Below are positions 14,084 to 44,890 of a DNA stretch of 64,000 bases, piece after piece. A program made the position numbers and the translations under genes. The stretch is from contig CAXRHT010000001.1 of NCBI GenBank assembly GCA_964230645.1, positions 608,001 through 672,000 of the forward strand, in the 5' to 3' direction. The notes under the pieces are model-generated. The model worked only from the letters and a program-made list of their open reading frames with translations. It was not told where the DNA came from and did not search any database. Source of the stretch: Bdellovibrionales bacterium. Its GTDB lineage: Bacteria > Bdellovibrionota > Bdellovibrionia > Bdellovibrionales > JAGQZY01. Within the stretch, counting starts at the first letter, position 1; each line of letters opens with the position of its first letter.

Positions 14084-14180
14084 AAAAAAAAGCATCGTGT
14101 GGGGCACGATGCTTTCGGGGTATGGGATATGGGGATTTGGGATCTATGAAGGCCTTCGACACTGTCTCCAACCTTCTGAC
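14084..14180 (-). ncRNA. Candidate C-rich small RNA, copy A (~97 nt)
   Basis: Sigma-54-like promoter upstream, 5' hairpin, GAUCCCAAAUCCCCAUAUCCCAUACCCC tract, 11-bp terminator stem with CCCCA loop and U8 tail. Confidence 0.6.
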
Positions 14181-14190
14181 TTTATATATA

Positions 14191-14206
14191 TTCATTTTTA
14201 GTGCCA
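14191..14206 (-). promoter_or_regulatory. Sigma-54-type promoter (variant -12)
   Basis: TGGCACTAAAAATGAA: perfect -24 TGGCAC, with GG-N10-GA instead of GC. Confidence 0.5.
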
Positions 14207-39673: not shown

Positions 39674-40558
39674 GTGAAAATGCAGCCTCGAATTAGCTTT
39701 ATCAAATTTCTTTCACTTATAGCGGTCGCTCTTTTCGCCTTTCCCCAACAGTCTGAAGCCGGGAGAGTTGTGAAAACTAAGGGAAGAAAAGTCTTTATCA
39801 AATTGGATGCTGCCGAAGCCGGTGACATGGCCGAAGGCGACTATCTTTATATGACTTCAAAGTCCGGAAAAAAATACGGGATCGTAATAATCAGGAAAAA
39901 GAAGGGCCGCTTAGTTATCGCGAAACTGGGAAAAGGAAATGCCAAAAAAGGCATGTACACTCAACTGCGTAAATCTAATAAAAGTCGAAGCAAAAGCCGT
40001 CCGATGGAAACTGCTAGTGACGTAGCTCTCACCGAAAGTGTTGAAAAACGTTCAGACACAATGATCGGACTTCTTGGAAGTTTTGGAACGGCCACTCAAA
40101 ACGTCACCGGTGTGGCAGATATGTCTGGGTCTACGACAGGTTTTAAAGGTATTTTTGATTATGAACTTTTTAGCGACTTCGGAGTTCGTGCAAGATTAGG
40201 TCTTGATATGTTGTCGGTGGAAGGTTCAAGTGATAACGGAGATTTCGCAACCTCTATTTCCTACCTCACCATTGATTTATTATTACGATACTACCTCTAC
40301 CGAGACGACAGTTTCGGGTTTTTCTTAAATGGAGGAATGGGAATCTATTCACCAATGTCGACAGATTTGGGAACCAACCAAGCCTTACAAGAGGACTCGA
40401 TTTCTACAACAAGTCTTCTTATTTTTGGGGGTGGTGTCGCTATTCCTTTTGGAGGTTGGCAGATCTTTCTCGGGGGTGATTACCTCTATTTCCCTCCTTC
40501 AGAAGATGTGGATACTAGTGTGATCTCCGGTAAACTTGGCTTAATTTTTGAAATTTAA
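39674..40558 (+). CDS. Secreted protein with C-terminal outer-membrane beta-barrel
   Basis: Signal peptide, Lys-rich N-terminal domain, OmpA/OmpW-like strands. Confidence 0.65.
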   Translation: MKMQPRISFIKFLSLIAVALFAFPQQSEAGRVVKTKGRKVFIKLDAAEAGDMAEGDYLYMTSKSGKKYGIVIIRKKKGRLVIAKLGKGNAKKGMYTQLRKSNKSRSKSRPMETASDVALTESVEKRSDTMIGLLGSFGTATQNVTGVADMSGSTTGFKGIFDYELFSDFGVRARLGLDMLSVEGSSDNGDFATSISYLTIDLLLRYYLYRDDSFGFFLNGGMGIYSPMSTDLGTNQALQEDSISTTSLLIFGGGVAIPFGGWQIFLGGDYLYFPPSEDVDTSVISGKLGLIFEI

Positions 40559-40568
40559 GGAGAAACTT

Positions 40569-41132
40569 GTGGCAAAGAGTTCAACAAAAGGTTTTTCGCT
40601 AATGGAGCTCATGGTCGCTGTAGCGATCATTGCCATCTTATCTCTGATGGCTGTCCCCGCCTATCAAGGGTTCCAAGCCCGAGCGAGACAAAAAGAAGGT
40701 TTCCATTTGGCAAATACCTTTTACACTGCGGCCCAAGCGACCCATACCGAGTTTGGTTTTTATCCAGGAGACTTCGTACAAACAGGTTTCCAACCCCAAG
40801 GAAGATTGGGCTACCGGCTTCGCACACAGAACGGAACTCTTATTCCATCTTTGCCGAATGATGATGGCTGCCTGAATACAGACCAGCCTTGCGACTGCGG
40901 GGGAGATTGCCCTAATTATAGAGAGTGGGAGGAAATTCCAGGAAACGTCGGCACCGAGACCCTCGGAGCAGTTGGATGTGATTGGGGAGCCTCCTGCGGC
41001 CCTCCTTTTGTCACTGACGATACTTTTCAAATTCTCGTTTGTGGATACGTAAACACTCGTTCTGCGTTGAGAGATCAATACGGCATGAATGAAAACAAAC
41101 AACTCACCATGTGTTTAGATGGATTGAAGTAA
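40569..41132 (+). CDS. Type IV pilin-like protein
   Basis: GTG after AAGGAG; KG|FSLMELMVAVAIIAIL...AVP.Y...RARQ.E; 8 Cys residues. Confidence 0.88.
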   Translation: MAKSSTKGFSLMELMVAVAIIAILSLMAVPAYQGFQARARQKEGFHLANTFYTAAQATHTEFGFYPGDFVQTGFQPQGRLGYRLRTQNGTLIPSLPNDDGCLNTDQPCDCGGDCPNYREWEEIPGNVGTETLGAVGCDWGASCGPPFVTDDTFQILVCGYVNTRSALRDQYGMNENKQLTMCLDGLK

Positions 41133-41192
41133 AAAAAAACGACCTGGTTTTGGGGAGCCAGGTCGAAAAAGGGGGATATGGGATCGTACCCC
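41131..41192 (-). ncRNA. Candidate C-rich small RNA, copy B (~60 nt)
   Basis: Sigma-54 promoter upstream, GAUCCCAUAUCCCCC motif, 8-bp terminator stem with CUCCCCAAAA loop and U9 tail. Confidence 0.55.
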
Positions 41193-41199
41193 TATATGA

Positions 41200-41216
41200 A
41201 GCAATCCCTATGCCCA
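41200..41216 (-). promoter_or_regulatory. Sigma-54-type promoter
   Basis: GGGCATAGGGATTGCT = GG-N10-GC with TTGCT at -12. Confidence 0.6.
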
Positions 41217-41333
41217 AAAAAATCTTAGCCCCCTGAACCAAGTATCTAATAATATTAGTGACTTATCCAACCTCACGCGACTCTACTTGTGACAATTTTG
41301 GGCCCAGTAACAATTTTCCGCGCCCCAATTTTG

Positions 41334-42410
41334 TCACTGCGACCTTGGTAAAGGCCGTTTTCCCATCGCGATAAGATGGTGTTGATGGGCCTTTACAGCA
41401 GAAAATAGACTTGGAAATTCATGGTAATGGAAGTTGTGACTCTGACAGGCTCTTTTTAATATTGGACGAATCTGAGGGTAATGAGTGTGACTGTAATTGG
41501 GAAAGATATGGTGCTCAATTTGATGATTAAGACCTCCCAGGTACCAGGACAGGAATCTATTTTTGGTAGCGAAGTTCGCTGTTGTGGCTAATTGAAACTC
41601 CGCCCAATCACTAGAGGTCCCCTTTTTTGAGAATTGTTGAACGTTGCTGACATGGGCCAATTGAAACACCACTACCATAATAAATCCCATCAATCCGAAG
41701 CTCACAAGGTAGCCAGTCAATACTAGAAGTGGATCACCGATGGTCCAAAGAGGAAGGAGCAAGAACAAAGAAACGTGCCAGAGTTTAACGAACAAGGTTT
41801 CCCAAATTACTTTTTTTAGAACCTTTGGTTTTAGGCTATAAGTGTTGCCTTTGATGTCGCGAAAATCACCCCACCACACCCAGCTTAAAATAAATAGCGG
41901 ATAGAGAAACCAAGCATAGATATGTTGAAAGCGGTGATTGGAGTGGAAGTTCTGCTGTTCGCAAAGCCTCAACAAACCGTTGGTATTTATATCATGATCT
42001 TTTCCAGGCACGTTAGTGAAACTGTGGTGGGCCACGCAGTGCTGATGAACCCACAAGGTTGGGCTACCACCTAAAAAAGAAATAACGTTTAAGAAAAGAT
42101 TGTTGATTGAACTATTGTCACTTGTCGCTTTATGACTGGCATCATGCATGACGGACATTTGAATGGAAACCATAATCAGAGCCCAAGGCAAGGCCAACAA
42201 AATGTTTGCCCACAAACTCTCTCCTCCGAAAGTTAAATAAACACCATAACTACCCAGCCATAAAACAAAGAGGATTAGGGCTTTAGCCACAAGTCTTTTG
42301 ACATCTTTTTGGGGACGTTTCGAAGTTTTAAGAAGGTCATTCACTTCTCCTTTCATAAACTTATGAAAGCTTTTTTTATTTTTTGACACTATTGCTGATT
42401 GAGAACTCAT
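41334..42410 (-). CDS. Membrane fatty-acid (acyl-CoA) desaturase
   Basis: His boxes HDASH, HCVAHH, QIEHH; GGLN. Confidence 0.92.
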   Translation of the reverse strand: MSSQSAIVSKNKKSFHKFMKGEVNDLLKTSKRPQKDVKRLVAKALILFVLWLGSYGVYLTFGGESLWANILLALPWALIMVSIQMSVMHDASHKATSDNSSINNLFLNVISFLGGSPTLWVHQHCVAHHSFTNVPGKDHDINTNGLLRLCEQQNFHSNHRFQHIYAWFLYPLFILSWVWWGDFRDIKGNTYSLKPKVLKKVIWETLFVKLWHVSLFLLLPLWTIGDPLLVLTGYLVSFGLMGFIMVVVFQLAHVSNVQQFSKKGTSSDWAEFQLATTANFATKNRFLSWYLGGLNHQIEHHIFPNYSHTHYPQIRPILKRACQSHNFHYHEFPSLFSAVKAHQHHLIAMGKRPLPRSQ

Positions 42411-42916: not shown

Positions 42917-43231
42917 TTGAAAAATCGAATTCGATTTAACAACCTTGTCGTATCCGCTGAAGAATTACCTGCCATTAAGAGAATTGTGCGACATCTATCA
43001 GAATGTGCCCCCTCTGATGCTTTTATCTCTGTAGACTTTCACAAAGCCAATCTTGGTTTTCAAGGAAGACTACAATTAAACTCTCCTAGTGAGAACTTTT
43101 CAGAGGAAGCTAATGGAGAATTATTGCTTTCTCTTATGCATAGCTTAGAAGATTTAACCATGCGTAGAATTGTTGAATGGCGTGAGAAAAGATTCTCCGT
43201 CATAGAGGAAGAAGAAAAGCTGACCTCTTAA
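42917..43231 (+). CDS. Small hypothetical protein, possibly HPF/RaiA-like fold
   Basis: TTG start after AAGGAG; apparent beta-alpha-beta-beta-beta-alpha pattern. Confidence 0.5.
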   Translation: MKNRIRFNNLVVSAEELPAIKRIVRHLSECAPSDAFISVDFHKANLGFQGRLQLNSPSENFSEEANGELLLSLMHSLEDLTMRRIVEWREKRFSVIEEEEKLTS

Positions 43232-43428
43232 ATGCTGCCACCAATATCGGGCCTTATCCAATCCTTCAATTGAATCGTTTAGGATTGGATTCGGATCCCT
43301 GGTCTTAGAGAGGTTTACGCCCCCGCAATCTTTAGGACCTCTTAATTAGACTAGTGTCCCCTCTGCGTAAGTCTGGAAGTAGCGCCCCTCTCTCAAAGCC
43401 TATTCTGATTTATAGTAAAATGATTCTG

Positions 43429-44187
43429 ATGAAACTCGTAATATTTTTTGTCTTTAACCTTGTTATATTAAGCCCGTGTTATGCTTTCAAAGTGAGTATC
43501 GATCCTGGTCATGGAGGAGGTGATGACTCAGGGGCTATCTACGCTGGCATCAAGGAGTCTCATCTTGTTCTAAAAATATCTAAAAAACTATACACCCGTT
43601 TGAGGAAGGATCCTTTTTTCGATGTGCAACTCCTAAGACAAAGCGATGAGTCCTTGGCTCTGGAAGATAGAGTTAAAAATACAAAAAAGTTTTCTCCCGA
43701 TTTATTTTTATCGATCCACGCCAATGCCAATCCAAACAAAAGAGCCAGAGGGACTGAGTTCTATATTCAAAACCAGCTTCCTGTTGATGAAGAGGCTTTG
43801 TTTTTGGCTCACAATGAATTTTCTGGAGATCCACTCGAAGGACCAAAAAAGGCAGGAGACATTGAGAGTATCGTCTACGATCTTGAAAAATCTCACCGTA
43901 TTACTAAAAGTTATCAGATAAGCACGTACCTAAGGGAACACTGGAGCAGCAAAAAAAGAAAAATGATCCGCCAAGGACCCTTTTTTGTCCTTAGTCACAA
44001 TGACGTCCCCTCCATCCTTTTAGAAGTGGGCTATTTAAGTCACTCTAAAGAGAGACAAAAGCTTTTAAATCCTGCCTATCAAGATCGCATGGTCAAAAAA
44101 ATCCATAAAGCACTAAAGGACTATGCGACAAACATGGACAAACTTCCGCCCGGCATTCTAAAACCTCAGAATGCAAAGACACGATAA
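43429..44187 (+). CDS. N-acetylmuramoyl-L-alanine amidase (Amidase_3)
   Basis: IDPGHGG, E, SIHANA, LLEVGYLS; signal peptide; start uncertain (43420 or 43429). Confidence 0.92.
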   Translation: MKLVIFFVFNLVILSPCYAFKVSIDPGHGGGDDSGAIYAGIKESHLVLKISKKLYTRLRKDPFFDVQLLRQSDESLALEDRVKNTKKFSPDLFLSIHANANPNKRARGTEFYIQNQLPVDEEALFLAHNEFSGDPLEGPKKAGDIESIVYDLEKSHRITKSYQISTYLREHWSSKKRKMIRQGPFFVLSHNDVPSILLEVGYLSHSKERQKLLNPAYQDRMVKKIHKALKDYATNMDKLPPGILKPQNAKTR

Positions 44188-44890
44188 TAGAAAAAACGAT
44201 CAGTTAAGAGAAGTGATCATCACTCCCCGCTTTAATCGCTATGCCGAGGGAAGTGCTTTGATTGAATTTGGACATACCAAAGTGGCCTGCACGGCCAGTG
44301 TGGAGACCTCCATTCCCAAATGGCTTCAAGGCCAAGAGCAGGGTTGGGTGACCGCTGAATATGGCATGCTCCCTCGCAGTACTCATGACCGCATGAGGCG
44401 AGATAAAACCAGTCAGTCGGGGCGCTCGCAAGAGATCTCAAGACTCATCGCCCGGTCCCTTCGAAGCTGCGTTGATTTAAAAAAACTCAAAGATATTCAG
44501 ATTTCTGTGGATTGCGATGTTCTCCAAGCCGATGGAGGCACTCGCACAGCCGCTATCACAGGTGGTTTTGTAGCCCTAGCTTTGGCTGTCGAATACCTGA
44601 TGGAGAAGAAACTGGTTTTAGAAAATCCTATTCTTAATCAAGTTTCAGCTATCAGTGTGGGTATTCTTGAAAACCAACCCTTACTCGATCTCTGTTACAT
44701 CGAAGACAGCCAAGCCGAAACGGATTGCAACTTTGTTATAAACAACAAAGGCGGATTGGTGGAGATCCAAGGAACAGCTGAAGAAAACCAATTTACCAGA
44801 GATCAATTCAACCAAATGTTAGATTACGCTCTTGTTGGTTGTGAAAACCTTCATCAAATACAAGAGCAGTGTTTGTCTCAAAAAATATAG
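44171..44890 (+). CDS. rph: Ribonuclease PH
   Basis: GWVTAEYGMLPRST, DCDVLQADGGTRTA. Confidence 0.97.
   Translation: MQRHDNRKNDQLREVIITPRFNRYAEGSALIEFGHTKVACTASVETSIPKWLQGQEQGWVTAEYGMLPRSTHDRMRRDKTSQSGRSQEISRLIARSLRSCVDLKKLKDIQISVDCDVLQADGGTRTAAITGGFVALALAVEYLMEKKLVLENPILNQVSAISVGILENQPLLDLCYIEDSQAETDCNFVINNKGGLVEIQGTAEENQFTRDQFNQMLDYALVGCENLHQIQEQCLSQKI

Follow-up and report, generated by a model that had tools for sequence, protein, structure and literature searches.

A genuine stand-alone small RNA gene, referred to below as copy B, is very probably encoded on the minus strand of the window (the whole 64,000-nucleotide stretch of Bdellovibrionales DNA analysed here), to judge from its sequence and its recurrence across the order. 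At its head lies a sigma-54 (-24/-12) promoter box (41200..41215), with GG at 41214-41213 and TTGC at 41204-41201 in the spacing GG-N10-GC. The predicted RNA of about 59 nt (41131..41189) has near its 5' end a single-stranded C-rich arm (41171..41187), composed of an order-wide C-run and a genus-specific 5' extension, and passes through five U residues (41170-41166) into an 8-bp terminator hairpin (41140..41165), whose stem (41165-41158 / 41147-41140) carries a C-rich loop of 10 nt (41148-41157) and is followed by a U9 tail (41131..41139) that is kept across the matches described below. The promoter, arm, stem, loop and U9 letters quoted in an earlier note on this DNA were all found at this place on the minus strand, and the U9 tail meets the stop codon of a pilin gene as that note had described, overlapping the last two bases of the TAA (41130-41132). 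Just upstream of the -24 box, a weak hairpin with a T-run (41224..41242, minus strand, -6.8 kcal/mol) forms a terminator-like site that is not conserved and is possibly the terminator of the desaturase gene.

The position of the transcription start was deduced from alignment. In eight aligned copies from the same genus, the gap between the C of the -12 element and the conserved body is always 11 nt, and the +1 was therefore placed at 41189, 12 nt after that C. A purine stands at this offset in 59 of 68 loci, but purines are found likewise at the adjacent offsets, so that the +1 is accurate to about 2 nt. Of the range 41189-41192 proposed earlier, 41189 is thus the best position, and the GGG then taken as the 5' end of the RNA falls inside the promoter. 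The predicted fold of the 59-nt RNA leaves the 5' 24 nt unpaired and contains one hairpin (-13.1 kcal/mol, z -3.7); the predicted unpaired fraction of the C-runs is 0.93 with a start at 41189, 0.72 with 41191 and 0.53 with 41193. On the plus strand the hairpin is not followed by a U-tail, and a bidirectional terminator was rejected on this ground. Promoter and terminator both belong to the element and are kept independently of the flanking genes, as in a trans-encoded sRNA that stands alone. The element also looks non-coding, since only 10 of 72 matches have an ATG in their 5' portion and the length of the predicted RNA (50–67 nt, median 56, in 68 loci) does not change in threes.

The host genome (3.78 Mb, 43% GC, 99.6% complete) was compared with increasingly distant relatives. 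A 13-mer pattern search of 40 relatives detected orthologues in 8 of 12 genomes of the same genus; in all, the pattern matched in 19 of 41 genomes, the matches outside the genus being attributed to chance. A covariance model found the element in all 12 same-genus genomes and in 3 of 13 genomes of the family's other genera, the latter count excluding two chance matches; two model matches in genome G016 were discarded as other terminators. Across the eight same-genus orthologues the two promoter boxes (GG and TTGCT) and the C-rich arm are 100% identical, as against 38% identity for the 7-nt promoter spacer and 32% for the upstream DNA. The arm is likewise invariant in nine aligned same-genus copies, except for the length of its C-run.

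With a broadened covariance model, 120 of 151 genomes of the order Bdellovibrionales gave a match at E<=0.02, mostly as one copy, and 102 of 151 did so at E<1e-4, 15 of the 151 having supplied the training set of the model. In a sample of the phylum, 20 of 23 genomes from the order matched, in contrast to 1 of 127 from outside it, and this sole exception is weak (E 2.3e-4) and was called by model score alone. The element is present in B. bacteriovorus. All 68 loci inspected, drawn from all 13 families, display the promoter, the C-run, the stem, a pyrimidine-rich loop and the U-tail. The order-wide core consists of TGGCAC-N5-TTGCT, a gap of about 11 nt with a few further bases, then a C-run of 4–9 and a short linker, followed by the stem GCGRCCWGG/CCWGGYCGC with a loop that usually contains 4–10 C. 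A C-run of at least 4 occurs in 72 of 72 model matches, and the loop contains such a run in 64 of 72. The CCCC loop that the earlier note took to be kept is therefore usual, but it is not invariant, being absent in genome G011.

GG and TTGC are present in 72 of 72 matches of a model that itself contains the promoter, and a promoter-free test based on the stem only was for this reason carried out. The stem pattern, applied to a public genome collection, hit at least 120 stretches, with 20 titled Bdellovibrionales and 100 others among the matches listed. The 20 Bdellovibrionales records listed, one of which is B. bacteriovorus Bd5 (L188), have the sigma-54 box at the expected distance in 18 cases and both the C-run and the C-loop in all 20. 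In Bd5 the element occupies about 2,576,609-2,576,690 on the minus strand of NZ_CP168968.1 (L188 297-378). By contrast, the 100 others listed have no sigma-54 box, 6 C-runs and 4 C-loops. In records L132 and L175 the C-run, stem and C-loop are kept and the sigma-54 box is not at its usual place, which could reflect replacement of the promoter or a longer RNA.

In genus g4, which belongs to the same family f1 as the host, none of six genomes (G015, G019, G022, G023, G024, G041) matched model R1, one weak match was obtained with model R2, and the surroundings of amiC, checked in three of these genomes, did not contain the element; g4 is possibly a case of natural loss. The element was also not found near amiC in five genomes of the order without a clear match, so that real losses or strong divergence are likely there. 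At the other extreme, the whole promoter-plus-RNA unit occurs in tandem, as four copies with 420-nt spacing at G065:C1:1674522-1675863 (L070) and as two copies 532 nt apart at G001:C26:62200-62823 (L043).

The pattern of variation argues for selection on single-stranded RNA motifs, as the earlier note had proposed, since the promoter boxes and the arm do not vary within the genus while the stem changes in compensating pairs. In an alignment of 68 distinct rows that had been fitted to the structure, 99.3% of the stem cells are paired and double-sided changes are seen at 7 of 8 pairs, a result reached in 0 of 500 shuffles; an unfitted alignment of eight rows contains one compensatory pair. As for the C-runs, 133 of 137 are predicted to be unpaired. 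Unpaired C-rich motifs are thus conserved both in the linker and in the loop, the arrangement that characterizes sRNAs of the LhrC, RsaE and RepG kind. The sequence GAUCCCAWAUCCCC, previously put forward as a kept motif, is not the order-wide one, which is a pair of C-runs, and GAUCCCAUAU is specific to the genus.

Whether motif and promoter come together more often than by chance was evaluated within the host genome. The exact 14-mer GATCCCAWATCCCC, common to copies A and B (copy A being a longer sibling described below), occurs five times against 0.056 expected under a 4th-order Markov model, and in this form the motif exceeds its background; with 2 mismatches allowed, by contrast, the count in the window is 2, which is not above shuffles (mean 1.04). 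The motif alone is therefore weak, and it is co-occurrence that counts. The genome contains 299 terminator-like hairpins, 18 of which have a sigma-54-like box upstream and 6 of which have both a C-run and a C-loop. Box, C-run and C-loop are found together at 5 of the 299, against 0.36 if they were independent, with the proviso that the descriptor was written after the copies had been seen, and is hence partly circular, and that three of the five are recent duplicates. These five terminators are exactly the five 14-mer sites. The co-occurrence is thus not at background frequency; a background frequency is what the earlier note had named as refuting its proposal.

The two genes that adjoin the element in the window are local insertions; the following counts of neighbours rest on heuristic ORF calls. 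The fatty acid desaturase gene (41334..42410, minus strand, PF00487) adjoins the element in 1 of 68 loci and the type IV pilin-like gene (40548..41132, plus strand, N-methylation motif) in 2, so that the convergence on the pilin, to which meaning had been ascribed, is incidental. The conserved home locus is formed by the genes for an amiC-type amidase and RNase PH (rph), at 43354..44890 on the plus strand in the window (PF01520, PF01138). With flanks of about 1.5 kb on each side, 44 of 68 loci include amiC. The gene follows the element on its own strand in 36 of them and precedes it divergently in 8, which indicates that the unit has been inverted without changing neighbours. Another family of neighbours, weakly matching SH3, is present in 31 loci, the element lying between it and amiC in either orientation. 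Between the desaturase and amiC genes the window also holds a 104-aa ORF (42917-43231, plus strand) without Pfam or NCBIfam match, which by eye I take to resemble ribosome hibernation factor-like proteins.

These neighbours bear on three explanations in which the element serves an adjacent gene. According to the simplest, the hairpin is nothing but the terminator of the desaturase gene and the remainder is chance: both are on the same strand, the hairpin lies about 170 nt past the desaturase stop, and it is the strongest one there. However, the desaturase adjoins a single locus of the 68, the first long ORF upstream is read from the opposite strand at 45 loci (from the same strand at 17, with none at 6), and among the matches listed the promoter accompanies the stem only in Bdellovibrionales. 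The neighbour and promoter co-occurrence counts refute termination of the desaturase as the sole function, and the explanation deserves next to no credence; in the host genome the element may stop desaturase read-through.

Slightly less implausible, yet very unlikely, is a cis-antisense regulator of the mRNA of a convergent pilin or outer-membrane protein gene. In G000, G003, G004, G005, G007 and G011 a convergent stop codon is touched or overlapped by the tail, and with no U-tail behind the hairpin on the plus strand, the convergent mRNA may read through. This explanation nevertheless leaves the order-wide C-runs unaccounted for, and its supposed targets are infrequent, the pilin being found in 2 and a convergent outer-membrane protein gene in 7 of the 68 loci.

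The third possibility is that the element forms the 5' leader, or an attenuator, of the gene that follows it, mostly amiC-rph, with the hairpin as a regulated terminator. It finds some support in 48 of 68 loci, where the first ORF downstream shares the element's strand, with amiC in 36 of them. Against it, the downstream gene is convergent in 12 of 68 loci, the window locus included, the orientation relative to amiC is flipped in 8, and fold prediction reveals no anti-terminator partner in the 5' arm. In strain HD100, moreover, the -50..+1 promoter string of Bd2697, as given in Table S2 of PMC3627812, begins with the 3' stem arm of the element and T9, and Bd2697 therefore has a start of its own after the terminator; it is described there as an attack-phase gene (RPKM 1022 versus 11). 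Its start lies at 2,619,972, and by the same string the 3' end of the element falls near 2,620,002-2,620,005. A leader function is accordingly improbable, and a stand-alone RNA remains the preferred reading.

Control of this RNA by sigma-54 is indicated by the -24/-12 box at a fixed distance and by the presence in the host genome of rpoN and of sigma-54 activators (enhancer-binding proteins), 12 of 17 matches being full-length. A putative activator-binding site of the TGACA-N5-TGTCA type lies upstream of the promoter (41289..41305, no strand assigned), with additional half-sites at ~41307-41317 and ~41327-41337. With up to 2 mismatches, 28 of 67 loci, most of them from the host's family, have such a palindrome in the 200 nt upstream, compared with 5.6 in shuffles; spacings of 3, 4, 6 and 7 instead of 5 gave 4, 7, 8 and 13 loci. 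When the 76 intergenic sigma-54-like boxes of the genome were ranked with a matrix built from other genomes, the site itself being left out, 41289-41305 came second. The scores fall into two groups, 23 boxes reaching at least 8.4 and the next one 5.7.

The roughly 23 sigma-54-like promoters with a site of this type were also considered together. Many of the downstream proteins look exported; 14 of the 20 scanned, out of 22, have no Pfam match, and the others are Hint-domain, flagellar rod, FtsK, PhoX, Kdo transferase and aspartyl protease-like proteins. The set is a candidate predation regulon. With a heuristic caller, signal-peptide-like starts are enriched among all genes with a sigma-54 box (26 of 43 versus 729 of 2252); among genes of the putative enhancer regulon neither such starts (6 of 13) nor G5 sites (1 of 13) are significantly enriched. 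My guess for the activator recognizing TGACA-N5-TGTCA is PilR. Neither TGGCAC nor TGGCAT appears in any of the 140 attack-phase promoter strings taken from PMC3627812, and sigma-54 promoters are therefore perhaps quiet in the attack phase.

The order-wide family appears to be new, the kind of RNA being already known. Rfam 15, whose families include LhrC, RsaE, RepG, Pxr and Qrr, gave no match in the window and none at the gathering threshold in six related loci, the best sub-threshold scores being 24.6 of 60 for ncr1241 and 16.7 of 110 for LhrC. The literature covered contains no description of the element that could be found; some supplementary sRNA lists lie outside this scope, and these, including TCOL's 23 B. 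bacteriovorus sRNAs, could hold it. The sRNAs described from the same group of organisms are APsRNA1-7 and merRNA (PMC3627812) and the 261-nt hit-locus sRNA (PMC3818213). Unlike the element, they measure 98–655 nt and, as reported there, none is near rph (2.62 Mb); none of the 8 sRNAs of PMC3627812 is placed at the position of the element, immediately before the start site of Bd2697.

Among characterized sRNAs, LhrC1-5 of Listeria monocytogenes (RF00616, PMC4132741) come closest in design. They too exist as sibling copies, and their redundant C-rich sites lie partly in the terminator loop and partly in a single-stranded stretch; LhrC has no Hfq requirement, and Hfq was not found in the host genome. 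The A-type siblings of copy B even repeat the three-site layout of LhrC (5' loop, linker and terminator loop). Homology is nonetheless absent (16.7 bits versus a cut-off of 110): the element is half as long, has homopolymeric C-runs instead of UCCC, and has a sigma-54 box instead of LisRK control, in a Gram-negative predator. The UCCC-motif sRNAs RsaE/RoxS of Firmicutes (PMC2790875) resemble it by an unpaired C-rich motif, Hfq independence and a block of initiation, and differ by lack of homology, promoter class and lineage. Both LhrC and RsaE use redundant C-rich sites, located in loops and linkers, for pairing with Shine-Dalgarno regions (PMC4132741, PMC2790875).

The terminator loop of RepG, from Helicobacter pylori, offers a parallel for homopolymeric pairing: it is C/U-rich and binds a homopolymeric G-repeat within the leader of an mRNA (PMC8295292). 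The element differs from RepG in having no Rfam match to it and a second C-run 5' of the stem, and also in scale, since RepG is described as acting on one phase-variable leader whereas here G-runs are found at the ribosome-binding sites of more than 100 genes. Pxr of the Myxococcales (PMC5684412) is the parallel in expression: it has a sigma-54 promoter with an upstream enhancer, is lineage-restricted, possesses a conserved 8-bp terminal stem and occurs in a host without hfq. Unlike the element, Pxr folds into three stem-loops and is processed (PMC10217877); no Rfam match links the two, and no C-rich motif was found in the text on Pxr in PMC5684412.

On these grounds I regard it as moderately probable that the element yields a 50–67-nt RNA that represses translation independently of Hfq, through pairing of its two exposed C-runs with G-rich ribosome-binding sites. 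A sigma-54 activator binding TGACA-N5-TGTCA would turn on the RNA along with some 22 other promoters, a good number of which precede genes for exported proteins. The RNA would be used without processing, either C-run making first contact with GGGG(G) or GGAGG sites, and many mRNAs would be targeted with modest specificity; in the host genus, the added GAUCCCAUAU would extend the duplex over the start codon. More tentatively, the RNA might be active in phases other than the free-swimming attack phase and help to readjust the secretome once prey has been contacted.

Several properties of the host genome are consistent with such pairing. Hfq, ProQ and RRM proteins were not found in an assembly that is 99.6% complete. 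A G5 site that continues into AUG-GGA is exactly complementary to the genus-specific arm. G5 runs concentrate at positions -15..-6 of start codons (217, versus 0–25 per two bins elsewhere), in a count whose start picker partly favours GGGG; an annotation-free pattern of G5 before a start gave 94 matches, versus 18 when reversed. Signal-peptide-like starts, identified with a heuristic caller, are found in 84 of 135 ATG genes with a G5 site (62%) and in 249 of 612 with strong canonical sites (41%), an association with OR 2.4 and p 6e-6.

The search for individual targets was less favourable. With the genus 5' extension, 257 start regions had predicted duplexes below -16 kcal/mol, compared with 160–314 in 12 shuffles, that is, no excess; the best duplex reached -28.3 kcal/mol versus -24.1 to -28.1 in shuffles, and the best predicted target has no homologue in the 12 same-genus genomes. 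On either side of G5 sites, the bases do not match the RNA. Nor does the share of G5 relative to GGAGG sites distinguish 32 genomes with the element (median 0.39) from 18 in-order genomes without a clear match (0.46) or 26 of other orders (0.34; p 0.09 and 0.18). The 3' end of 16S rRNA was not found in the assembly. With three target tests negative, the mRNA targets are candidates only.

The exposed C-runs together with these negative tests set the weight of pairing with G-rich start regions as given above, and for the same reason leave a minor share of the probability to a stand-alone sRNA acting, like CsrB or CrcZ, as a decoy for a C-binding protein (a KhpA-type KH-domain protein, Rho or PNPase). 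The three negative target-fit tests favour a decoy, KhpA is present in the host genome, and C-runs of variable length with free flanks fit a protein-binding RNA equally well. The unpaired motifs are repeated in loop and linker and multiplied in the A-type siblings, and the gene itself is amplified in tandem in G065 (four copies) and G001 (two). CrcZ, too, is under sigma-54 control. However, the ancestral form has only two motifs, which is little for a sponge, and the invariant genus extension is an exact complement of G5 plus start codon. CsrA, which binds GGA (PMC13443453), is present, but GGA occurs in only 16 of the 68 predicted RNAs; their loops are C-rich without GGA, and a CsrA sponge of the CsrB/Rsm kind was rejected.

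The RNA could instead be a sponge that pairs with G-rich or GGA loops in a leader RNA or in a second non-coding RNA. Loop-loop contacts would be favoured by C-runs within a terminator loop, as discussed for LhrC in PMC4132741, and no conserved mRNA target was found among the predictions; no such partner RNA was identified either, and the G-runs of the genome are concentrated at start codons, which makes this sponge unlikely. Returning to pairing with ribosome-binding sites, a much bolder extension, which I consider doubtful, is that poly-G ribosome-binding sites are an address label on the mRNAs of exported proteins, read by an order-wide core riboregulator pared down to a C-run and a C-loop terminator; the result would be a sigma-54-controlled secretome switch between hunting and growth, to which lineage-specific siblings with other enhancers would add signals.

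Post-transcriptional control in Bdellovibrio is almost unexplored, and the nine B. bacteriovorus sRNAs listed in the papers covered are described as having no homologues outside the species (PMC3627812) or no known pathway (PMC3818213). The element is retained, conserved sigma-54 box included, by roughly two thirds to four fifths of the order's genomes, and its role is probably that of a core regulator in the predatory way of life. An RNA of about 56 nt would presumably be lost in ordinary RNA-seq, and the proposal can be tested directly because the element sits at a known place in the genetically tractable B. bacteriovorus. If correct, it would carry the Hfq-independent mechanism of C-rich sRNAs into another phylum and account for the preference of poly-G ribosome-binding sites for exported proteins in the host genome.

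Copy B has a longer sibling in the window, copy A (14084..14206, minus strand; about 97 nt from a predicted +1 at 14180), which lies upstream of a cytochrome c3 (alternative complex III-like) operon and consists of a 5' hairpin, repeated C-rich motifs and a C-loop terminator. The two copies had been thought to share a promoter type; GG-N10-GC applies to copy B, but the box of copy A is GG-N10-GA. In six copies of the A-type, which is about 100 nt long, 6 of the 8 pairs of the terminator stem are compensatory. An A-type model matched 5 of 61 order genomes, namely the host, G003, G004, G008 and, weakly, the tandem B-like copies of G065; the orthologues in G003, G004 and G008 are each upstream of the same cytochrome operon. 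By eye, A-type copies have another upstream palindrome, TCTCA-N3-TGA, and the A-type is likely wired to a different activator than copy B. Given how few genomes hold the A-type, copy B is the ancestral member, present almost throughout the order, and copy A is a sibling at the level of the genus.

Elsewhere in the host genome, three near-identical A-type copies are found within 3.6 kb (G000:C2:1831028-1834633; L001 6029-6161, 8357-8489 and 9503-9634). Two of them are followed by the same short repeats, and the gene at L001 13145-13795 is, by family likeness, presumably a RAYT-like transposase; the copies on this contig therefore look like recent duplicates. Two related C-rich elements with C-loop terminators and without a sigma-54 box lie about 600 nt apart at G000:C1:458503 and 459120 (L246) and are possibly a third sibling type. 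Finally, G000:C1:499187-499257 (L050, L245; model E 7e-4) combines a C5 run, a U-run and a terminator stem like that of copy B, in an element without sigma-54 box or C-loop.
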